20,818 nucleotides of DNA, from positions 1 through 20,818 of the forward strand of contig JABCTC010000053.1 in NCBI GenBank assembly GCA_018238545.1, written 5' to 3'. Shown here piece by piece: positions 1-20,361 of the stretch; the first letter of the stretch is position 1; every line of letters begins with the position of its first letter. The notes beneath the pieces are model-generated. The model did no database searches and was not told the DNA's origin. It saw only the letters and a program-made list of their open reading frames with translations. The translations under genes were made by a program, and so were the position numbers. Source of the stretch: Candidatus Heimdallarchaeota archaeon (GTDB lineage Archaea; Asgardarchaeota; Heimdallarchaeia; Heimdallarchaeales; Heimdallarchaeaceae).

Positions 1-97
1 AAAAGAATATATTGTAACAGAAATCTATCAAAATCAATTCATAATCTTAAGGTTCTTCTGGCTAATCTTTTTAAAAATAAAGAATTAACTAAGTGTT

Positions 98-409
98 GTG
101 AATAATCTAATTTGTCCGACCTGTAACAAGCCATTAGAAATCCATATTGATGCTTTATATCCAATGCAAGCTGTTTCTGCAGATATGTTAAAACAAGGTA
201 TTATCATTAATTGCTTGGAATGTCAAACAAGAATTAATGATATTTCAACACTTCATTGTCCTCAATGTGGGGATAACAGTTTAACAACAGAGATAGATAG
301 AGATTCTCAACCACCACCTTTTGGGAGAAAAGTAGAGGGTAGTGTGAACTGCAGTATTTGCGAGTTCAAACCATTAGTCAGCAAGGATGATGGAATTCTT
401 CCAAGATAA
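98..409 (+). CDS. Small double zinc-ribbon protein (4 x CxxC), function unknown
   Basis: 103-aa ORF with CPTC, CLEC, CPQC and CSIC. GTG start lies ~20-25 nt after a TATA-like TTTTTAAA (69-76). The stop abuts the convergent GTPase stop. Confidence 0.75.
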   Translation: MNNLICPTCNKPLEIHIDALYPMQAVSADMLKQGIIINCLECQTRINDISTLHCPQCGDNSLTTEIDRDSQPPPFGRKVEGSVNCSICEFKPLVSKDDGILPR

Positions 410-1393
410 TCATCGTCTTGTAACAATCAGTTCAATTACATCTGTATCAGCTAACACATGATCTAGTCCTACTTGCTGAGATTCAAATTCTGCTGATGGA
501 CCGATTACTCGTGCATAACGAAATCTATCGACAAAACTTGTGTGAATCTTTCTAGCAATATCGACCACGGTTGCACCTTCTGGTAAAACTAAAGGATCAT
601 CAAGATTTGGTCTTGTACCTGACTTCTTTGTATAGACTCTGATTATCTCTAACTGCTCAAAAAGCATTTTCTTTAGTTTTTGCAGAGAACCTTCTTCCTT
701 AATAGTAATCGGACAGATAGGTAAATCAGTTATTTCTGCTAATTCTTGGTACCTCTCTTTTGTATTAGGTAAATCTCCTTTTGTTGCAATTATTCCGAAT
801 TTGTAAGTGGTTTCACCATTTTCTATCAATCGAGCATCTTCCAGCTGTTTGATAAGAAAATCGTATTGCCGCACAATGTCCATTGATAAATCTATCACCA
901 TTAGTATAGCATCACTAGTTCTTGCTACACGCAAGATCTGCTTGCTAGTTGCCCAATCTTCTTTGAAATCCAGAAATCCAGGAACATCTATGATTTGGAT
1001 TTTTACATTTTCATACTCAAGTGTACCAGCATGGGCAGTTCGAGTTGTGTGAAGATATCCACCAGTTTTGACATCAGTATTTGTAATAGCATTCATCAAA
1101 GTACTTTTCCCAGCATTAGAAATACCGAACAAAGTGATTCTTCCATCTCCGGAATAAGGTATTTCAAAAGGGTCGTATTGTCGTCCTTTTGTTTTAGGTT
1201 TGGCTTTAATTTCTGATACCATTGATTCAAGTTCACGGATTTGAAGCTTGAATAGACCAATTTTATCCAGTTTTTTGTTGATAATATCTGCTACTATTTC
1301 TTCTAATTCAGAGATAAGCTGATCTCCTTCAAGGTTTCTGATTTTTCTGGCAATGTTGAATCTATACCATCTTAGTTTGGTGTGGTTACTCAT
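410..1393 (-). CDS. DRG/OBG-family GTPase with C-terminal TGS domain (divergent, short form)
   Basis: G1 GISNAGKST, G2 YLHTT, G3 DVPG, G4 TKGD. TGS domain IIRVYTK...GATVVDIARKIH...QQVGLDHVLADTDVIEL. Shine-Dalgarno GAGGTGA just upstream of the ATG. Confidence 0.92.
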   Translation of the reverse strand: MSNHTKLRWYRFNIARKIRNLEGDQLISELEEIVADIINKKLDKIGLFKLQIRELESMVSEIKAKPKTKGRQYDPFEIPYSGDGRITLFGISNAGKSTLMNAITNTDVKTGGYLHTTRTAHAGTLEYENVKIQIIDVPGFLDFKEDWATSKQILRVARTSDAILMVIDLSMDIVRQYDFLIKQLEDARLIENGETTYKFGIIATKGDLPNTKERYQELAEITDLPICPITIKEEGSLQKLKKMLFEQLEIIRVYTKKSGTRPNLDDPLVLPEGATVVDIARKIHTSFVDRFRYARVIGPSAEFESQQVGLDHVLADTDVIELIVTRR

Positions 1394-1442
1394 TTTATCA
1401 CCTCATTATTATTTTCTTATTTATTTAGTTCATATTTCACAC

Positions 1443-1633
1443 ATCGAAGAAAAGTAGCGAAAACAGGTTGAAATCAAGGAAAGCAGGTATTCAAAGAGAA
1501 TAACAAACAAAACCAGTGACAACAATGTTAACTACTCGCTACTAAACATAACATCTTCGATTGATATTAGTCCAATAACGCGAGTTCCCCTCGCTTGATA
1601 CTATAATGTACGTTGAAGGAGTGACATTGTTCT
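1443..1633 (-). promoter_or_regulatory. Candidate structured 5' leader / cis-regulatory RNA (attenuator-like) upstream of the GTPase
   Basis: Helices found by eye on the minus strand: GCGAG/CUCGC (1594-1590 with 1584-1580); ACUCGC/GCGAGU (1585-1580 with 1539-1534); AUCGAAGA/UCUUCGAU (1561-1554 with 1450-1443); AGUAGCGAG/UUCGCUACU (1543-1535 with 1461-1453). No long ORF in the region. Confidence 0.45.
1601..1627 (-). CDS. Putative 8-aa leader peptide (uORF) MSLLQRTL
   Basis: ATG at 1627 is ~30 nt downstream of a TATA box, a near-leaderless position. The TAG at 1603-1601 lies at the base of the first leader hairpin. Confidence 0.3.
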   Translation of the reverse strand: MSLLQRTL

Positions 1634-1656
1634 CAAGATAAACTTGGATAGAATAA

Positions 1657-1671
1657 TTATAAGGGTTTTGG
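1657..1671 (-). promoter_or_regulatory. Archaeal BRE-TATA promoter for the leader/GTPase transcript
   Basis: Minus strand reads CCAAAACCC-TTATAA. It sits directly downstream of the U-rich terminator region of the Lrp/AsnC gene. Confidence 0.5.
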
Positions 1672-1779: not shown

Positions 1780-2013
1780 TCATTGGTCTACGCAGATCAT
1801 TGTCATTGTAGAACGAACTTTCTCCAACACTCTTAGATTCTCTGTTACAATCTTTTTCAATGAATCAGTGTCTTCAGCTTCAATTTTTGCTATTAAGTCA
1901 TATACACCATAAACTATGTGCACTTCTGAGACGTTTGGCATTTCTTTAAGCTGGGACATAACACTACTTTCTTCTCCAATTTCACAATTAATCAATATGT
2001 AGGCTGAAGCCAT
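1780..2013 (-). CDS. Stand-alone Lrp/AsnC ligand-binding (RAM) domain protein
   Basis: AYILINCEIG...EVHIVYGVYDLIAKIEA...LRVLEKVRSTMTMI is a typical AsnC C-terminal domain with no HTH. ATG 2013 is preferred over the track start 2028 because GGTGA lies just upstream. Confidence 0.9.
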   Translation of the reverse strand: MASAYILINCEIGEESSVMSQLKEMPNVSEVHIVYGVYDLIAKIEAEDTDSLKKIVTENLRVLEKVRSTMTMICVDQ

Positions 2014-2206
2014 CTTTTCTTTCACCAAGTAGAGAAGGAATCTTATAGTTTAAGAAATTTTCCCCTCAACAATTAGTAATACGTTTACAGAACAAATGTC
2101 TTCTAGATGCACGAAAAACTAGCTTAAAAGCCACAAAACGTGAAAAATAATTATTGATAACATGAATAGTATTGTAAAAAAAAGAAAAAAGGAAAATTTC
2201 TCTAAT

Positions 2207-2689
2207 TTATTTTGCTAAATCTAAGCTGATTCTGCAATATTCACCTGGTTTAAGATTGATATTTGGAAGTGAAGGAGATTCGCCTTTTACAAAAGTTATA
2301 GCACCCATGATAATTCCTCCAACAGGGCAGGCTGTTTCGCCTTCTAAATCATAACCACCAACTCTTTTTGGACAGATTAAGCAGTTTTGAATTGTTATTA
2401 TCGATTTACCATCTTCAGTCTCAAAGCTAAGTTCTTCAGCCATCCGAATTTCCTCTAAAAGTTTCTCGATCAATTCTTGTTCGGAAATATTAACCCTAAT
2501 CTTCTTCTGCCTTAGAAGTTCTTTTGCAATTTCTTGCCCAATCCACACACTCAGAACATCCATGGCTCCTTGTGGTCCAAAACTTAGATTTAATAGTTTT
2601 CTTGATTTAACTAATCCTACTCCAAGTCCAATTACTACTTTGTTAAGATAATCCTTTCCTGGATCTTTTCGTGAAAAAAATCTTGCCAT
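2207..2689 (-). CDS. V4R-like (H-NOX/V4R/Bet3 fold) small-ligand-binding protein
   Basis: ITIQNCLICP...ACPVGGIIMGAI...GEYCRISL matches the Cys pattern of V4R-type domains. ATG 2689 follows AGGTG (track start is GTG 2698). Confidence 0.65.
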   Translation of the reverse strand: MARFFSRKDPGKDYLNKVVIGLGVGLVKSRKLLNLSFGPQGAMDVLSVWIGQEIAKELLRQKKIRVNISEQELIEKLLEEIRMAEELSFETEDGKSIITIQNCLICPKRVGGYDLEGETACPVGGIIMGAITFVKGESPSLPNINLKPGEYCRISLDLAK

Positions 2690-2701
2690 ATTATACACCT
2701 T

Positions 2702-2995
2702 TTATTTGTTTTCCCAGACTAATCCATCTTTGATGAATCTTTTAATGATTTCTTGAATCTTTGGAAGATCTATCCTTATTCCTAACGCTGCTTCAAGAGG
2801 AAGAGTAGCTTTACGAATCTCCTCTAGAGAGAGAGGACCATCTTCACAGATAGCTTGAAGAATAGTTTTATCCAAAATGAATGAGCTTTTCTCTCGCTCT
2901 AAAGCTTGTTTAGTAGAAACCAACCCACTATATGTTACTTTTCTTGGATCTGATGATTCTTGTTGATTTTTGTCCGTCAAATTGGAACCCTCCAT
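2702..2995 (-). CDS. Small winged-helix-like protein
   Basis: DKTILQAICEDGPLSLEEIRKA...IQEIIKRFIKDGLV is a wHTH-like pattern. It ends a few nt before the V4R-like gene, suggesting an operon. Confidence 0.6.
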   Translation of the reverse strand: MEGSNLTDKNQQESSDPRKVTYSGLVSTKQALEREKSSFILDKTILQAICEDGPLSLEEIRKATLPLEAALGIRIDLPKIQEIIKRFIKDGLVWENK

Positions 2996-4901: not shown

Positions 4902-5105
4902 GAATTTCTCACTAAGAATGAAAAAATATTATTGCCAATATAACTTTATGTCTCTAACTATGCCATACAATACTAATACAAGGGATTAACAGACGAAGAA
5001 TAACCGAGTAAAACTTTCTCCCAAAAGACAGATTGTAGCTATTTCATGTAATGCGTGTAAGTTTTACAAAAAGAGTTATTAACCAAAAAGAAATAATTGC
5101 TGAAC

Positions 5106-7595
5106 ATGAAGTTTACTTACGTACCTAGAAAAAATCTTATGTTTCTTATCTTTAGCCTCTTCTTAGCAACCTCTCTTTTTACAGGTTTGATTGATGTTAG
5201 AGCGACACCTGCCCCTTCGAATCTATCACCGTCAAGTAATAGTTATACAAACGATAACACACCTTTCTTTGACTGGACGGATGTGACAGGGAATGATAAT
5301 TATAATATACAAATAACTACAGATATAACTTTCGTAGTGATTGATCACAATACAATTTTATCAGGTAATTCACCTTCATCATACACTCAACCTAGCGCTC
5401 TTCCAGATGATGTTTACTATTGGAGAGTAAGGTCATATGATTCTGCAGCAGGAGGATGGAGTCTTCCTTCTACAGCCTGGAAATTAACTGTTGATACAGT
5501 TGTACCGGTAGCTCCGAATGTGATTACTCCAGAACATTATGGATACATAAGTGATGATACACCATACGTGGAATGGGAAAGAGATCTAAGTGCATTAAAA
5601 TATAGAGTTGAATTTGATAATACATGGGATTATTCATCTCTATTAGATTCAAGAAACACCTATAATTGGTATTATACTTATCCTTCAGCATTAACTGATG
5701 GGAGATATTATGTGAGAGTCCGATCTGAAGACTCTGCGGGGAATATAGGTCCTTGGACTAATGTTGCATTTGATATTGATACTGTACCACCTCCAGCTCC
5801 AATCTTAACCGATCCAGCTGAAGGACAAGTTATAACAAGTTTTCCTCATTCATTTGACTGGGATTCTCCAGGAAGTACTTATTACTGGTATATTGAATTT
5901 TCAAGAGTCATAGATTTTTCAACATTAACATATAATGTAGGAACAAATTGGGATGCGGGTTATTCATGCTCGCCTGGAACTTCAGATGGATTGTATTATT
6001 GGAGAGTAAGACAAAAGGATTATGCAGAAAATTTGGGGCCTTGGAGTTCTGTAGGAACATTTACATTAGACAGTACAGGACCATCAGCTCCAACCTTAGT
6101 GAGTCCAACACATAATACTTACACAACAGATACAACACCATATCTAGATTGGAGTGATCCTGCAACTGCAGTAGGTTATCAAGTTCAAGTAGATACATCA
6201 GTTTCTTTCTCAGCACCAGTTGTAGATACAACACCTACTAATAGTTATTATACTACTCCAGTATTAGCTGAAAACACATATTTTTGGCGAGTAAGATCAA
6301 AAGATTCTGTCGACAACTGGGGAAGTTGGAGTAGCAGTTGGTCTTTTACAATAGACACAACAGCTCCATCTGCGCCCACTTTAGCTAGCCCAGAAAATAA
6401 TTTTGAAACAAATGACAACACACCCTATCTTGATTGGCTTGAAGTAGCAGATACTTATGAATATCAAGTCCAAGTAGATATTTCAGATTCTTTTCCTTCA
6501 CCCATAATAAATGTAGGAGGAACAGTTAATACTTACTACCAAATTTCATCTAGCCTTTCAGACGATGTTTACTTCTGGAGAGTAAGAGGGGTAGACCTTG
6601 CAGGTAATGTTGGAGATTGGAGTGCCATAAGATCATTCACAATAGACACCTTAGGTCCCATTGCACCTTTGTTAGTTTCCCCAGATGATGCAGAGACATT
6701 AACTGATAGAACACCATCATTACTTTGGAATTCAGTTACAGATGGAGCGGAATATCAATTACAAATAGATACAGCAGGAACATTTGTTTCATTTGAGTAC
6801 AATATAACCACATCAAATACTTTCTATTCCATCCCAGTAGATCTTTCAGATGGAACGTATTATTGGCGAATAAGAGCAAGTGATACAGCTGCAAATTGGG
6901 GAAGTTGGAGTGCAACGTGGTCATTTACTATAGATTTAGAAGGACCTGAAGCTCCTGTCTTAAACACGCCTACTAATAGTGCCATTCTAGATGACGATAC
7001 GCCTTATCTCGAATGGGTTTCAATAGGAGACGCAGCTGAATATGAAATCGAGTTAGCATCAACGGCTGCTTTTGGTGGAACATTGCTTTTCTCAACTACA
7101 ACCTCAAATAACAACTATACAATATTCTTTACGCTTAGTGACGATGTTTATTACTGGAGGGTTCACGCTAAAGATGTTGCAGATAACTGGGGCGACTGGA
7201 GTGCGGTGTGGTCATTTACAATAGATACTATCGGTCCTTATATCTCAAGTCCTGAGGATATTGAATATGAAATTGGAATGACTGGAAATAATTTCAGCTG
7301 GTATCCAGCCGATGATAATCCAAGTAGCTATATTGTATACTTAGATGGAGTAATACTATTTTCTGGAACATGGAATACATCAGGTGAAGAAATCTTCTTA
7401 GACGTAGATGGACTTGGAATCGGCATTTATAATTTCACACTCTACTTTGAAGATGCTACTGGAAAAAGCAATACAGATACAGTATTTGTTACTGTAACTG
7501 AAGTAGTAATACCAGAGTACGGTCTAACAGTATCTCTTATTCTTCTACCAGTTATTTTCATTGGTATACTAATAATTCGAAAACGGAGAAAATAG
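5106..7595 (+). CDS. Cell-surface protein with 7 tandem FN3/Ig-like repeats, an Ig-like spacer and a PEF-type (PEY) C-terminal sorting tail
   Basis: Signal peptide. Seven ~95-aa repeats AP.L.SP...TP.LDW...Y..Q.D...F...YYWRVR..D...N.G.WS..WSFTIDT. Ends VVIPEYG + TM + RKRRK. TATA-like TTATTAA at 5076-5082 favours ATG 5106 over TTG 5097. Confidence 0.88.
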   Translation: MKFTYVPRKNLMFLIFSLFLATSLFTGLIDVRATPAPSNLSPSSNSYTNDNTPFFDWTDVTGNDNYNIQITTDITFVVIDHNTILSGNSPSSYTQPSALPDDVYYWRVRSYDSAAGGWSLPSTAWKLTVDTVVPVAPNVITPEHYGYISDDTPYVEWERDLSALKYRVEFDNTWDYSSLLDSRNTYNWYYTYPSALTDGRYYVRVRSEDSAGNIGPWTNVAFDIDTVPPPAPILTDPAEGQVITSFPHSFDWDSPGSTYYWYIEFSRVIDFSTLTYNVGTNWDAGYSCSPGTSDGLYYWRVRQKDYAENLGPWSSVGTFTLDSTGPSAPTLVSPTHNTYTTDTTPYLDWSDPATAVGYQVQVDTSVSFSAPVVDTTPTNSYYTTPVLAENTYFWRVRSKDSVDNWGSWSSSWSFTIDTTAPSAPTLASPENNFETNDNTPYLDWLEVADTYEYQVQVDISDSFPSPIINVGGTVNTYYQISSSLSDDVYFWRVRGVDLAGNVGDWSAIRSFTIDTLGPIAPLLVSPDDAETLTDRTPSLLWNSVTDGAEYQLQIDTAGTFVSFEYNITTSNTFYSIPVDLSDGTYYWRIRASDTAANWGSWSATWSFTIDLEGPEAPVLNTPTNSAILDDDTPYLEWVSIGDAAEYEIELASTAAFGGTLLFSTTTSNNNYTIFFTLSDDVYYWRVHAKDVADNWGDWSAVWSFTIDTIGPYISSPEDIEYEIGMTGNNFSWYPADDNPSSYIVYLDGVILFSGTWNTSGEEIFLDVDGLGIGIYNFTLYFEDATGKSNTDTVFVTVTEVVIPEYGLTVSLILLPVIFIGILIIRKRRK

Positions 7596-13028: not shown

Positions 13029-14954
13029 ATGAAAAATAGAAACAAAGCTTATCTTATCATTTTTGTTTTTTGTGCGTTTATGATTACAACTTCAATAAAT
13101 CAATCCATCCTTACAAGTGCTATTCTACCACCCCCCACGTATCTATCACCAGCTAATGGCAGTTACACAAATGATGACACACCTACTTTCACTTGGTCTG
13201 CTGTGTCGGGAGCAATTTCTTACACCATAGAATATGGTTCGGATCCAAGTTTCTTTGTAAGTATTGATTTTACTGTGCCTGCCTCTCAAACTAATTACAC
13301 TATTTCATCAGGTGCAAGTGATGGTTTATTTTACTGGCATGTGAAAACAAATGACCCAGGAGATGGAGCTTGGGGTCCAACATGGACTTTAACATTAGAT
13401 ACTATAGCCCCAGGTCAAGCGATATTACAAACTCCTGCTGATAATACACAAATAAATGATAGTACACCCTTCTTTAATTGGGCATCAGTGACAGGAGCTT
13501 ATGAGTATAGAATAGTTGTAGATGATGATGATACCTTTGAATCACCATTTATTAACACTACAACTTCAGTTTCTCAATATCAAGCAGTGACACCTTTGCC
13601 TATGTCTTATCATCACTGGAAAGTTCAAGCAAGAGATAGGGCACATAATTATGGAGCTTGGAGCGAAGTATTTGGTTATTTCTTAGATCTTGTCCCACCA
13701 GGAGCAATCGTTCTATCTACCCCAAGTAATAATTCATATGGAAATGAGATTAGTTATCTAGAGTGCTCAACGGATCCGGGAGCAGATCTCTATTATTTCG
13801 AATTGGGAAACAACGCAGCGTTTGACATCATATATGATAGTGGTGAATCAGCTACCAATTATTTCGACCCTACTGTTCCTGATGGAACGATATATTGGAG
13901 AGCTCAAGCACGAGATTATGCAGGAAATCAAGGTCCATGGAGCGAAACGTGGATGTTTACTCTCGATTCAACGGGTCCAGCTGCACCAACAATAGTTCTT
14001 CCTCTAAATAATTCCTATACGTCAGATACAACACCATATTTTGAATGGAACATGACTGAAAGTGCAGTAGAGTGGCAATTATTTGTTTCTTACCAACCAT
14101 TCTTTAGTTCTTCGTGGGGTTATGCTACTCCAAATACGTATTTTGATGGCACTTCAGAATTCGGTGAAATCCCAGTTTATTGGAGAGTTAGAGGAAGAGA
14201 TGCTTTATGGAACTATGGACCATGGAGTGAGACAGGAGTCATTAATATCGATTTGACTGAACCAATATCACCAACAATAACAGGTCCATTAAATAACACT
14301 AGCACTAATCAGACAATTGTAACATTTAGCTGGGATTATTTAGCAGATACGATTGACTATTATGAGATTTATGTTTCACAACATGCTGATTTCTCAGTTC
14401 TATATTACGCTCCAAAAATTAATGACAGTAATAGTCACATATCAACAGGCCCATTTGCTGATGCTGTTTATTATTGGAAGTTAAGAGCTGTTGATCTAGC
14501 TGGAAATGTAGGTAATTGGTCAGAAACGTGGATCTATGAAATCGACACGATACCTCCTGGAATTGTAACATTAGTATCTCCAGCTGATGGAGCAGTTCTT
14601 GACACCAATACTCCGACATTCACATGGAACCCAGTTGCTGGTGCAGTTCTATATCGTTTGTATCTTGTTTTCAATAACGATTGGACTTCTCCAATAATAA
14701 TAATCGACCTGAATGAAACCTCTTTCCTATTACCTTTTGCTATAGGTGGAGCATCTAATGTATTCTATTGGAGTGTTCGAGCAATAGATGCAGCAGGTAA
14801 CTTTGGAGGATATGATCCTGCATGGACATTTACAATTGACACAGTTGTTGTTCCAGAATTTGACACGTCTATAGCTATGTTTGTTGTATGGGGTTTGATA
14901 TCTTTAATGGCAATAGTGATATCCAGAATAAGAAGAAAGAAAATTTCACTCTAA
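13029..14954 (+). CDS. Cell-surface protein with 6 tandem FN3/Ig-like repeats and a PEF-CTERM-like tail (paralog of 5106-7595)
   Basis: Signal peptide. Six repeats ending Y.W.VRA.D.AGN.G.WSE.W...D. Many N-x-S/T sequons. Ends VVVPEFD + TM + RIRRKK. Confidence 0.88.
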   Translation: MKNRNKAYLIIFVFCAFMITTSINQSILTSAILPPPTYLSPANGSYTNDDTPTFTWSAVSGAISYTIEYGSDPSFFVSIDFTVPASQTNYTISSGASDGLFYWHVKTNDPGDGAWGPTWTLTLDTIAPGQAILQTPADNTQINDSTPFFNWASVTGAYEYRIVVDDDDTFESPFINTTTSVSQYQAVTPLPMSYHHWKVQARDRAHNYGAWSEVFGYFLDLVPPGAIVLSTPSNNSYGNEISYLECSTDPGADLYYFELGNNAAFDIIYDSGESATNYFDPTVPDGTIYWRAQARDYAGNQGPWSETWMFTLDSTGPAAPTIVLPLNNSYTSDTTPYFEWNMTESAVEWQLFVSYQPFFSSSWGYATPNTYFDGTSEFGEIPVYWRVRGRDALWNYGPWSETGVINIDLTEPISPTITGPLNNTSTNQTIVTFSWDYLADTIDYYEIYVSQHADFSVLYYAPKINDSNSHISTGPFADAVYYWKLRAVDLAGNVGNWSETWIYEIDTIPPGIVTLVSPADGAVLDTNTPTFTWNPVAGAVLYRLYLVFNNDWTSPIIIIDLNETSFLLPFAIGGASNVFYWSVRAIDAAGNFGGYDPAWTFTIDTVVVPEFDTSIAMFVVWGLISLMAIVISRIRRKKISL

Positions 14955-17818: not shown

Positions 17819-18383
17819 TTACGAACTTCAAAATAAACATGAACTGTCAAGACATATAGATGCTTTGCAATTAGCACCATAGTGCAATTAGCACACTTAT
17901 TATAAACACAATGACCCCTATTACCAAAACAACCATAAATATCGCTAATATTGCTAAGATAAGCACAAGAATTGATTTTATTTTTGTATTTTGAAATATT
18001 TCAGTATTAAAGAGATTCTTTGCATTTTTCTTAACTTGATCGAAATAACTAATTTATTCTTCTACTATTTTCACTTTACCATTGAGATAGCTTCTAGAAA
18101 GAATGCAGAAAGAGAGAAAGATTAGAAAAACACCTCCCAGTATTGTAACTGAAATTGCGAAATATAGAAACCAATCAAAATAACCAGATAACCAGATATT
18201 GTATCCGAGGAAGGCATCAAAACCTGACAAAAGAGTAATACCTAAAATTATCCCCCCAAAAGGTGTTTTATTTGTCGCTCTGTCCAAAATACCAGACATT
18301 TTTGTTTTTAATGAACTATCCTCAGAATTAGGTGGGGATGTTTTTTCTTCATTCTCTGAAATATCATTCTTCAATATAAACAA
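17815..18383 (-). pseudogene. Multi-TM membrane protein gene interrupted by an in-frame TAA (18056-18054) and probably a 17-nt duplication
   Basis: The 18383-18054 frame continues for 60 sense codons past the TAA (ISYFDQVKK...SILVLILAILAIFMVVLVIGVIVFIISVLIALWC) to 17871. Removing one period of the repeat at 17866-17894 extends it to a TAG at 17817-17815. Confidence 0.55.
17866..17894. repeat. 12-bp direct repeat TGCAATTAGCAC x2 with a 17-nt period
   Basis: Exact copies at 17866-17877 and 17883-17894; each is quasi-palindromic (TGC-N5-GCA). Confidence 0.8.
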
Positions 18384-18672
18384 CCTCTTCCAGGATACTA
18401 GGACCTATGTAGGGACTAAGAGCTTCTTTAGTAACTAGATTAACTTTAACCTGAAATAAATCTTCAAGGAAATGAAGTAAATTCATGAGATTGTCGAAAT
18501 TCTTCTTACCAATTTCAAATTCAACCAATACATCGAGATCACTCATAATTTCTTGTTCTTCCCTAACATAGGAACCAAAGATACCGATATTTTTGATTCC
18601 AAAAGATTGAATTGTAACTACGTTATTACGTAAGACCTCAAGAATTCTTGTGAGATTGAGTTTGTCTTCCAT
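18364..18672 (-). CDS. Minimal nucleotidyltransferase (MNT/MntA-type antitoxin), orphan
   Basis: GIFGS-YVREEQEIMS-DLD fits GSx10DxD; the third acidic position reads KVNLV rather than KVDLV. ATG 18672 lies ~23 nt after a TATA-like box (track start is GTG 18687). Confidence 0.9.
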   Translation of the reverse strand: MEDKLNLTRILEVLRNNVVTIQSFGIKNIGIFGSYVREEQEIMSDLDVLVEFEIGKKNFDNLMNLLHFLEDLFQVKVNLVTKEALSPYIGPSILEEVVYIEE

Positions 18673-18683
18673 TACTAGAAATA

Positions 18684-18746
18684 TCACTGCAAGATATTAA
18701 ATAGATTTCGAAGATATAGAATGAGTATCTTGTAATATCGTTTCAA
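18684..18746 (-). pseudogene. Probable N-terminal remnant of a HEPN/DUF86 toxin gene (MKRYYK...)
   Basis: TTG overlaps the MNT stop (TTGA) and reads MKRYYKILILYL..., resembling DUF86 starts such as MTREYKLYL in the neighbouring gene. Only 20 sense codons. Confidence 0.4.
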
Positions 18747-19039
18747 ATCCTAACAACCTCGGAATAAATATAGTCTCGAAATTCTTCACGTACAGCTCTT
18801 TCAGAAACAATGTCAACTTTGATGTTCAATTTTCCCTCAAGAAAGTCTGCTAAACCAACGAGATCAAATAAAGATGCTCCATCAAGAAACTTGACCAATA
18901 GATCGATATCACTTGTTGGTTTCTGTTCATCACGGACAAATGAACCAAAAATACCAATAATTTCAGCTTTATATCTGTCTCTGATTAAGCTTTCAAGATT
19001 TTTTATGATATTAATCACAGAGTCTAGCTTTCTTTCCAT
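18743..19039 (-). CDS. Minimal nucleotidyltransferase (MNT/MntA-type antitoxin), orphan
   Basis: GIFGS-FVRDEQKPTS-DID, SLFDLVGL..FLE, KVDIVS. Own TATA box TTTATATA at 19068-19061. Confidence 0.93.
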   Translation of the reverse strand: MERKLDSVINIIKNLESLIRDRYKAEIIGIFGSFVRDEQKPTSDIDLLVKFLDGASLFDLVGLADFLEGKLNIKVDIVSERAVREEFRDYIYSEVVRI

Positions 19040-19080
19040 ACAATAAATTAGAATTCAATCTATATAAATGACGAGTCTTG

Positions 19081-19422
19081 TTAATTATCTATATGGTTCA
19101 ATATCTCTTTTACGGCTTCTTCTAGTTCAAGGATTCTATCAGAGATTATTTCCCAAACAACATCAAGATTTGTCACAAAATCAGTAGTTATTATATCTCT
19201 TAACCTAGTTATTTTTCTCCAGTCAATATTTTCTTTCGTTTCCCTGATCTCTTTAGGGATATTTCTTGAAGCTTCAGCAATAATTCCAAGATTACGAACA
19301 ACAGCATCTTGAACGAGTGAATTTGCAGAAAATTCTTCAAAACTCAACACACCTATGTAATCACCTATTTTTGCAATAGAATCGAGTATATCTGATAAAT
19401 ACAGTTTATATTCCCTTGTCAT
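19081..19422 (-). CDS. HEPN/DUF86 (HepT-like) protein with a degenerate RNase motif
   Basis: YLSDILDSI...DAVVRNLGIIAEA..IP...IDWRKI..LRD...LDVVWEII is DUF86-like, but the Rx4HxY motif reads RDIITTDF (track start 19428). Confidence 0.88.
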   Translation of the reverse strand: MTREYKLYLSDILDSIAKIGDYIGVLSFEEFSANSLVQDAVVRNLGIIAEASRNIPKEIRETKENIDWRKITRLRDIITTDFVTNLDVVWEIISDRILELEEAVKEILNHIDN

Positions 19423-19455
19423 AAACAATACCTTCCATGAGCTATTTTCCCCTTC

Positions 19456-19818
19456 TTATGACAGAAAAGGTTTGATTATTTTTACTAGTTCTAACATATC
19501 AGAATTAGGATCTCCTTTCATTGGACTTTCTACCGCGTCTTTTTCTCCTCTTCTATGTAAATGATGTGGAGCAGTATTAACTTTCCATTGTTGATCATAG
19601 TTGTCATATCGAATTCTGTCAAATTTCCTGTTTGAGAAATTTAGCTGGTAAGAATATTCATCAAAATCGTTATAACGAATATAAAGAATTAATCCATTAA
19701 CAAATTCTATTGTTAGAACTGGTCGTTCTTCTGAAAAGGTTTGACTAAATATAGAAATAGAAAGTTTCTCTTGTAAGATAATAACAGCTTTTTGAAGTTT
19801 GGATAAATAGTTCAACAC
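19456..19818 (-). CDS. DUF6516 / TumE-like putative toxin
   Basis: YSYQ...RIRYDNYD..W.V.TAPHHLH matches the RxDN...PHHxH pattern of the family. Starts 8 nt downstream of a small helical partner gene. Confidence 0.75.
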   Translation of the reverse strand: MLNYLSKLQKAVIILQEKLSISIFSQTFSEERPVLTIEFVNGLILYIRYNDFDEYSYQLNFSNRKFDRIRYDNYDQQWKVNTAPHHLHRRGEKDAVESPMKGDPNSDMLELVKIIKPFLS

Positions 19819-19826
19819 TAAAACCT

Positions 19827-20060
19827 CTATAGGTTTTTTAGAAGTCTTTGTAGTTTCTTCTGCTCTTGAATTAACTGTTTCAGTTCTATAGCATCGTTCT
19901 CTGATTCATCTAATTTCCCTGTTTTAGAATTTTCTAGAAAACTATCTATAGATGTTTCGGACCATTTTTCGAGAACCCTTGAAATCTCTCTCTGTATGTT
20001 TCTAAGTTTATATTGTATAAGATCTTCAGCATCAGATCTATCTAATGAAACTGTGGTCAT
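19827..20060 (-). CDS. Small helical protein, putative TumA-like antitoxin
   Basis: Coiled-coil-like, ...LEKW....IDSFLE...G.L.ESENDAIEL..L. Directly upstream of the DUF6516 gene. TATA TTTTTATA at 20096-20089 favours ATG 20060 over 20081. Confidence 0.6.
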   Translation of the reverse strand: MTTVSLDRSDAEDLIQYKLRNIQREISRVLEKWSETSIDSFLENSKTGKLDESENDAIELKQLIQEQKKLQRLLKNL

Positions 20061-20121
20061 CCTTATCAGTAAACTAATCATTCTAAACTATAAAAACTCT
20101 CTTTAATAATAGAATAAAGAG

Positions 20122-20144: not shown

Positions 20145-20361
20145 TATCCTAGTTTCAAGAGGTAAGGAGCGAGATACAGGCACAGCCACCTTCTCGTAAG
20201 ATATGTTTGTTTGACAAGAACAAGGCTTGTTAGAAAGTCCTACTTATGAGATATACTGTTTTAGTAAGAGATGTATAACATAGCTATTAATGGTTAAATT
20301 CGAGTTAATATAAACAGATGATAAGTTTATATAAAATAAAACAATTAGTGAAGTGTTTGGA

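Follow-up and report, generated by a model that had tools for sequence, protein, structure and literature searches.

Control of gene expression by stalled ribosomes on a short upstream open reading frame (uORF) is known from bacteria. In Escherichia coli, the toiL uORF of topAI-yjhQ has eight codons, and stalling anywhere on it is proposed to unmask a downstream ribosome-binding site; toiL responds to several classes of ribosome inhibitors, and termination is secondary to translation control (PMC12121999). In Listeria monocytogenes, rli80 attenuates hflXr, the gene of an accessory ribosome GTPase paralogue, by means of a uORF and alternative helices (PMC6310831). In mycobacteria, ribosomes stalled on polycysteine leaderless short ORFs block structures that sequester a downstream ribosome-binding site (10.1101/834739). 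Our literature search, which covered few subscription journals, found no report of the Asgard leader described here or of a characterised archaeal uORF attenuator, in line with a first-pass annotation that knew of no such element for archaeal DRG genes; uORFs as such have been reported in Haloferax.

The leader lies on the minus strand of the window, which is the whole stretch of DNA analysed (20,818 nucleotides, contig JABCTC010000053.1 of assembly GCA_018238545.1, Candidatus Heimdallarchaeota archaeon). Its parts are collected in Table 1, and the coordinates given for them by the first-pass annotation, from the TATA box, ATG 1627, MSLLQRTL and TAG 1603-1601 through the pairing segments to the SD and the start at 1393, are all right. 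We propose that the region is a ribosome-sensing leader in which a ribosome stalled on early uORF codons would turn the GTPase gene on, and we put the probability of this reading at about 0.6. That the region is a conserved ribosome-sensing leader at all, either in this way or in the way of the termination-based alternative weighed below, is highly probable. A broader reading is slightly better than an even bet: the leader would be a general Asgard stall sensor, a near-leaderless eight-codon ORF that switches by means of its own start codon and induces a dedicated DRG-like GTPase for rescue or antibiotic protection. That this sensor was kept across two classes, rebuilt in one clade and is present in a cultured strain is part of the broader reading and is given the same slight preference.

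Table 1. Parts of the leader and the gene behind it, in window coordinates
Feature	Positions	Strand	Remarks
Archaeal promoter	1656..1671	(-)	BRE-like run, then TATA box CTTATAAT at 1663-1656; from sequence
5' strand of helix H0, with the predicted transcription start (G1634), the 7-nt leader and the uORF start codon	1624..1634	(-)	start predicted from TATA spacing
8-codon uORF MSLLQRTL (putative sensor ORF)	1601..1627	(-)	ATG 1627, TAG 1603-1601
6-nt spacer between uORF stop and hairpin	1595..1600	(-)	sets hairpin 1:2 at +13, counted from the P site when a ribosome terminates
Hairpin 1:2 (H1), GCGAG-gggaa-CUCGC	1580..1594	(-)	paired in 100%; compensatory variants
Long hairpin 2':3 (1579-1563 with 1555-1538) and extended register 2:3	1534..1585	(-)	swap and shuffle tests, folds
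3' strand of helix H0, ACAUUGUUGUC	1518..1528	(-)	compensatory changes; also invaded by segment 4
U-rich tract directly 3' of H0, candidate early termination site	1493..1512	(-)	conserved position
Segment 4, with two alternative partners: segment 3 plus the H0 3' strand (3:4), or the start region of the GTPase gene (4:5)	1443..1470	(-)	swap tests, folds
Segment 5: A-rich standby stretch, SD GAGGUGA (1404-1398), GTPase ATG	1391..1418	(-)	sequence
327-aa DRG/Rbg-like GTPase	410..1393	(-)	Pfam MMR_HSR1 and TGS; N-terminal helices, G domain, TGS, no S5D2L insertion

The leader shares with toiL the eight-codon uORF in a long leader and the proposed logic of unmasking by a stall. However, toiL is bacterial, SD-led, Rho-dependent and part of a toxin-antitoxin operon, and has no homology in sequence or structure with the Asgard leader, which is near-leaderless, forms a cascade of five segments, holds its start codon in a helix and precedes a ribosome GTPase. 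With rli80-hflXr it has in common a uORF with alternative helices, an accessory ribosome-GTPase paralogue as target and the proposed feedback from stalled ribosomes, whereas the 14-aa peptide, its RLR arrest motif, the intrinsic terminator/antiterminator and the HflX family belong to the bacterial system; the Asgard leader has neither a conserved motif nor a clear hairpin terminator, and its target is DRG-like. The mycobacterial ORFs resemble it in lying at the extreme 5' end and in that a stall blocks a site-sequestering structure, but they sense one amino acid by a codon run that the Asgard leader does not contain. If our reading is true, archaea of the lineage closest to eukaryotes have their own counterpart of toiL and rli80-hflXr, and in these closest prokaryotic relatives of eukaryotes the leader would connect the leader-peptide control of bacteria with the uORF control of eukaryotes.

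Taken by itself, the region is unremarkable. Its minimum free energy (MFE) compared with shuffled sequences has z = -1.0 and is significant on neither strand, so that the first-pass expectation of folding better than shuffles is not borne out. A search of Rfam gives no match at the gathering threshold (best E 3.3), and tRNA and tmRNA scans of the region give none either. Resemblances to the c-di-GMP-I, yybP-ykoY, THF and SRP motifs were dropped because no model matched, and a repeat or mobile element was rejected because the leader is single-copy in the genome. The case rests on comparison.

For comparison we used 53 distinct leaders of orthologous genes in two Asgard classes, Heimdallarchaeia and Lokiarchaeia, including the cultured Promethearchaeum syntrophicum; the encoded GTPases span 54-100% identity, and since the leaders are mutually related, all counts over them overstate independence. 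One further leader was submitted under the label Bathyarchaeia (L045), but it is identical to that of G090, which a genome search puts in the class of the window, and we therefore make no claim beyond Asgard archaea. Start, stop and frame of the short ORF are kept in all 53 hairpin-bearing leaders, with the stop at the expected place in each. The uORF has eight codons in 43 leaders, seven in eight and six in two, and begins with ATG in 50 and TTG in three. Its stops are TGA (20), TAG (19) and TAA (14), while TGG, expected 8.3 times from letter frequencies, does not occur there; in-frame internal stops are likewise absent against 11.6 expected, and the other two frames contain 12 and 11. At the same time, there are 49 different peptides among the 53 leaders. 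Judged from these counts, the uORF is conserved as a reading frame and its peptide is not. The uORFs show no codon run of the amino-acid-sensing type (trpL, hisL), as Leu makes up 27% of the 49 peptides yet is absent from several, and no residue past the start is invariant, as an arrest motif such as RLR (rli80/erm type) would require. There is only a loose C-terminal bias, namely L/R at -3 in 38 peptides, T/A/S at -2 in 31 and L/I/V as the last residue in 34. Read-through or fusion of the uORF to the GTPase was rejected, since its frame varies at random with respect to that of the gene, and another in-frame stop follows after 1-42 codons.

The spacing is also kept. The distance from stop to hairpin is 6 nt in 51 of the 53 leaders and 5 nt in the other two, and in most leaders a TATA-like hexamer begins 33-40 nt, mostly 36, upstream of the uORF start. 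With a TATA box about 36 nt before the start codon and the usual archaeal spacing, transcription would start about 7 nt upstream of the uORF. The pattern of stop, 6 nt and hairpin occurs once in the source genome. In its strict eight-codon form it has one match each in 34 of 399 Asgard genomes, and none in the reversed-pattern controls; the matches precede the GTPase gene wherever the contig is long enough, and six that at first showed no link to the gene each run into the GTPase or the contig end. The carrier from P. syntrophicum has a six-codon uORF (GTPase WP_162306765.1). Conservation of the element is thus far beyond chance.

That annotation described a scheme of three helices, 1:2, 2:3 and 3:4. 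These helices are real, but the scheme was incomplete, since it overlooked H0 and 4:5. H1 keeps its pairing through three independent compensatory variants, GCGAA/UUCGC, CCGAG/CUCGG and GCGCU/AGCGC. In its extended form 1:2 folds at -10.9 kcal/mol with the uORF stop in its base, as had been noted; this applies to the source genome but is not general, because the stop lies within the stem in only 19 of 53 leaders and in varying registers, and we have dropped it as a conserved trait. The extended register of 2:3 pairs ACUCGC (1585-80) with GCGAGU (1539-34), which excludes H1, and ACUAA (1571-67) pairs with UUAGU (1545-41). For 3:4, a fold of 1565-1438 alone gives -29.9 kcal/mol.

The register of H0 slides between clades, which blurs fixed-column covariation (63% paired), and we therefore used swap tests, in which the cognate partner of each strand is compared with cross-clade partners and with shuffles over the 53 leaders. 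For 2:3, the cognate beats the cross-clade partner in 50 leaders and 95% of shuffles in 46; the corresponding numbers are 45 and 32 (p<=0.05) for 3:4, and 42 and 25 (p<=0.05) for H0. H0 pairs the 5' end and the uORF start codon with the strand just past segment 3 (duplex -12.8 kcal/mol here, probability 0.89 in naked RNA of the source genome) and is compensated between clades as AACAAUG/CAUUGUU, AAUGACC/GGUCAUU, UGGAC/GUCCA and ACCAAUG/CAUUGGU. The pairing of segment 4 with the ribosome-binding region of the GTPase gene, whose SD GAGGUGA matches the 16S 3' end of the same genome, GGAUCACCUCCU, varies in strength with the clade: the cognate is better in 33 leaders, p<=0.05 is reached in 10, and for the source genome, pairing with just the last 24 nt does not exceed shuffles. 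This helix, 4:5, is the weakest link of the proposed switch. In the naked fold a pyrimidine run within the uORF (1620-1615) is the partner of segment 1, but as a selected helix this pairing (0:1) was rejected, since composition explains it and it is significant in four of 53 leaders.

We folded the leader of the source genome with a ribosome-sized mask at each uORF codon, using three footprint sizes at 20 and 37 C; the Haloferax ribosome covers 27 nt, beginning 12 nt upstream of the P site (PMC7261190). Note that this is equilibrium folding of AU-rich RNA, which ignores kinetics and a possible closure of H0 around the bound ribosome. Naked RNA of the source genome forms H0, 2:3 and 4:5, and opening its GTPase start region costs 6.7 kcal/mol. 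When the P site is on codons 1-5, H0 is lost, H1 and 3:4 are formed and the cost is 2.8-4.3 kcal/mol, a drop of 2.4-3.9 kcal/mol (37 C, three footprints) that has the same direction at 20 C. When the stop codon is in the A site, H0 is back and the cost is 6.3-6.7; a mask ending at +12 keeps H1, and one ending at +15 gives 2:3. With the P site at codon 8 the result equals that of naked RNA. The first-pass annotation had assumed that a ribosome lingering at the uORF stop is the trigger and 2:3 the switched state. A mask over 1603-1588 indeed gives 2:3 (p 0.82), but fold and cost (6.6 versus 6.7 naked) do not change, so that the presumed switched state belongs to the closed default, and neither the trigger nor the sign is supported as stated. 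Over all 53 leaders, the mean cost is 7.2 for naked RNA and 5.0 once codon 3 occupies the P site, the start region being more open in 41 leaders and less open in two. If the middle of the leader is shuffled, the effect is 0.96 versus 2.25 kcal/mol for the real sequences, which exceed the shuffled mean in 38 of 53 leaders; about 40% of the computed opening effect thus persists after shuffling. For the freeing of segment 3 the effect is 3.0 versus 1.4 for shuffles. These equilibrium folds suggest the sign of the switch, and are no proof of it.

Since the masked folds are closed at the stop and open earlier, the likeliest logic is that of trp-type or toiL-type leaders. In the proposed mechanism, the transcript starts about 7 nt before the uORF, and a ribosome would load onto the nascent 5' end before the remaining leader is made. 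If it runs quickly through the eight codons and terminates, H0 would form and 2:3 would displace the weak 1:2; segment 4, left over, would pair with the GTPase ribosome-binding region, the U-tract would be displayed behind H0, and the gene would be off. This closed state would also block loading of new ribosomes on the uORF. If instead the ribosome is held on codons 1-5, by slow early elongation, peptidyl-transferase inhibitors or its own damage, H0 would not form, 1:2 would stay, 3:4 would form, and the start site would be free, so that the gene would be on. The induced GTPase, presumed to rescue paused ribosomes, would then close the feedback loop. Because the peptide sequence is unimportant, stalling in general would be the input, and not any single amino acid. 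With the given ORF length and 6-nt spacer, one footprint fits between H0 and 1:2, and the stop would thus reset the leader to off. As H0 hides the start codon, loading would have to be co-transcriptional, and the leader would in effect time early elongation. The leader offers a precise test case for ribosome-coupled attenuation in archaea, with 53 natural variants, the cultured P. syntrophicum and clear mutant predictions.

A second type of leader occurs in a clade of Lokiarchaeia at five to six loci (L046, L049, L072, L077, L086, L095). It is unrelated in sequence and contains no GCGAG hairpin, but it keeps the TATA distance, an eight-codon TTG uORF (TGA or TAA) and H0 over the start codon; it has a central multi-hairpin domain, and a segment 4 equivalent, CUGAUAUAAAG, competes for the same strand. 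In folds of these leaders, a P site on codons 1-3 removes H0, which reappears at codon 8, although the effect on start-site opening is inconsistent. As this divergent clade keeps the uORF, H0 and a competing segment 4, we regard the uORF together with H0 versus 3:4 as the core of the element. In L046 and L049 a further small ORF separates the leader from the gene. Two homologues of 50-54% identity (L082, L109) have a minimal set, consisting of a TATA box and a uORF of 10-11 codons with its start in a small hairpin and its stop just before the SD; the L109 peptide is rich in Trp and Cys.

On the output side, translation control and early termination may both act, as in toiL, and the U-tract after H0 may add termination as a candidate site. 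One alternative holds that the output is mainly early termination at the U-tract, intrinsic or aCPSF1/FttA-dependent, and/or that the leader senses slow termination or recycling of ribosomes at the uORF stop. The place of the tract behind H0 is fixed (the first T4 run lies 9-32 nt past segment 3 in 50 of 53 leaders), the source genome has an aCPSF1/FttA gene, and its tract is unpaired at 0.95-0.99 only with H0, compared with 0.54-0.66 without it. This shift in exposure, which the first-pass annotation had predicted, is confined to the source genome, since the mean over the 53 leaders is flat (0.55-0.64); moreover, segment 4 is transcribed after the tract, and 3:4 cannot therefore shield it co-transcriptionally. 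No canonical hairpin terminator was found in the leader. The only RNA run that includes the P. syntrophicum locus comes from a related strain and consists there of one 25-kb contig of even depth, which is uninformative on expression. As for the stop codon as the site of sensing, the 6-nt spacer couples the position of the stop to H1, which in leaders of the Hodarchaeales type even reaches 3 bp into the spacer, and the residues preferred at the C-terminus of the peptides could form an arrest motif. However, all three stop codons are in use, and in the source genome a ribosome at the stop equals naked RNA in both fold and start-site cost. We consider this alternative rather unlikely.

The helices could also serve something other than stall sensing. 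If the three-helix junction of H0, H1 and 2':3 bound a protein or a small ligand, as in autogenous repression or a riboswitch, the uORF would only aid refolding; the binder could be the TGS domain of the GTPase itself, given that TGS domains bind RNA, or a ribosomal protein, and we hold each part of this idea to be improbable. The H1 stem, its purine loop (GGGAA or GGGAU in 38 of 53 leaders) and the GAGUAG/GGGUAG linker are indeed conserved in sequence, but these letters are explained by the double pairing of segment 2, with both 1 and 3; furthermore, the loops are free to vary in some clades (CUCGG, GUCGAGA), one clade swaps the whole sequence and retains the uORF and H0, and Rfam families do not match even weakly. 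It is very improbable that there is no switch at all, with the uORF constitutively feeding ribosomes to the GTPase gene or dampening it and the helices acting as a stability element. The MFE is no better than that of shuffles, and in the two minimal homologues the ORF stands alone just before the SD, as such an arrangement would suggest. In the 53 leaders, by contrast, 170-430 nt lie between the end of the uORF and the gene, whatever the frame, and the mutually exclusive, clade-compensated pairings and the fixed spacer would be superfluous.

Under the stall-sensing reading, the nature of the target is of interest. The G1-G4 motifs (GxSNxGKS, HTT, DxPG, TKGD) are nearly invariant in the GTPase family, and an Obg-type G domain and a C-terminal TGS domain are present. 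The first-pass annotation named a DRG-family GTPase, and the closest solved relatives in both sequence and fold are indeed yeast Rbg2 and Rbg1; the protein is, however, a paralogue and not a canonical DRG. It shares the G motifs, the N-terminal helices and the C-terminal TGS with yeast Rbg1/Rbg2 and archaeal aDrg, but it lacks the S5D2L region and is shorter there by about 60 residues (profile 76-195 and 230-323 match Rbg2 54-173 and 271-364, with 35 residues in place of 98), its switch II reads FKEDW instead of the GASxGKGRG type, and it is a patchy accessory paralogue beside a canonical full-length DRG of the same genome (contig C114, 372 aa from the first Met). The family forms a tight separate clade with members in the Heimdallarchaeia and Lokiarchaeia, 54 of 399 Asgard genomes in all; as long-branch paralogues are unplaced in the tree, we draw no root or transfer claim from it. 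In yeast, both stalling and sensitivity to anisomycin are relieved by DRG/Rbg proteins, among them one from archaea (10.1101/2024.04.20.590341). Stall-induced expression of the present GTPase would therefore be sensible, its product presumably rescuing paused ribosomes by analogy, and the leader points to an undescribed DRG paralogue as a putative inducible ribosome-protection factor.

The GTPase gene behaves as an accessory module. Compared with window positions 24-1654, contig C5 (G000:C5:1-167) shares the flanks 1755-1655 (97%) and 23-1 (91%) and has 43 nt in place of a 1.6-kb cassette of TATA box, leader, GTPase gene and zinc-ribbon gene; it then enters a single-copy MBL-fold hydrolase gene, and this hydrolase adjoins the GTPase in many relatives. 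C5 is probably an empty-site allele from the same population. In another carrier (L119 / L014, G011:C4:3197-6647) the leader is intact, but near codon 9 the GTPase gene is interrupted by a transposase-like ORF (about 410 aa); this GTPase copy, the start of which reads ATT, is probably inactivated. A third DRG-like protein (L111, G000:C49:1532-2416) is of a short TGS type, 26% identical and without the leader, and is encoded directly behind a dehydrogenase gene; many such forms of 310-335 aa occur among the family comparison. A long-branch paralogue of Lokiarchaeia (L105-L108, 49% identity; one copy in a single-contig genome of 6.0 Mb) lacks such a leader and has only a short conserved stretch upstream.

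A GCGAG/CTCGC hairpin in other context is part of a repeat element present in three copies near contig starts (G000:C43, C63, C86); these are unrelated to the leader and are probably insertion-sequence ends. Upstream of the leader on the minus strand (window 1780-2995) are genes for a stand-alone Lrp/AsnC ligand-binding-domain protein, a small winged-helix protein and a 163-aa Cys-containing protein with no Pfam match. Elsewhere in the window, two long predicted surface proteins with fibronectin/Ig-like repeats and C-terminal membrane anchors are encoded on the plus strand (5097-7595 and 13029-14954). A small-gene cluster on the minus strand (18364-20081), as read from the sequence, resembles toxin-antitoxin modules of MNT nucleotidyltransferase and HEPN/DUF86, and is adjoined by a DNA methylase-like gene at 20353.
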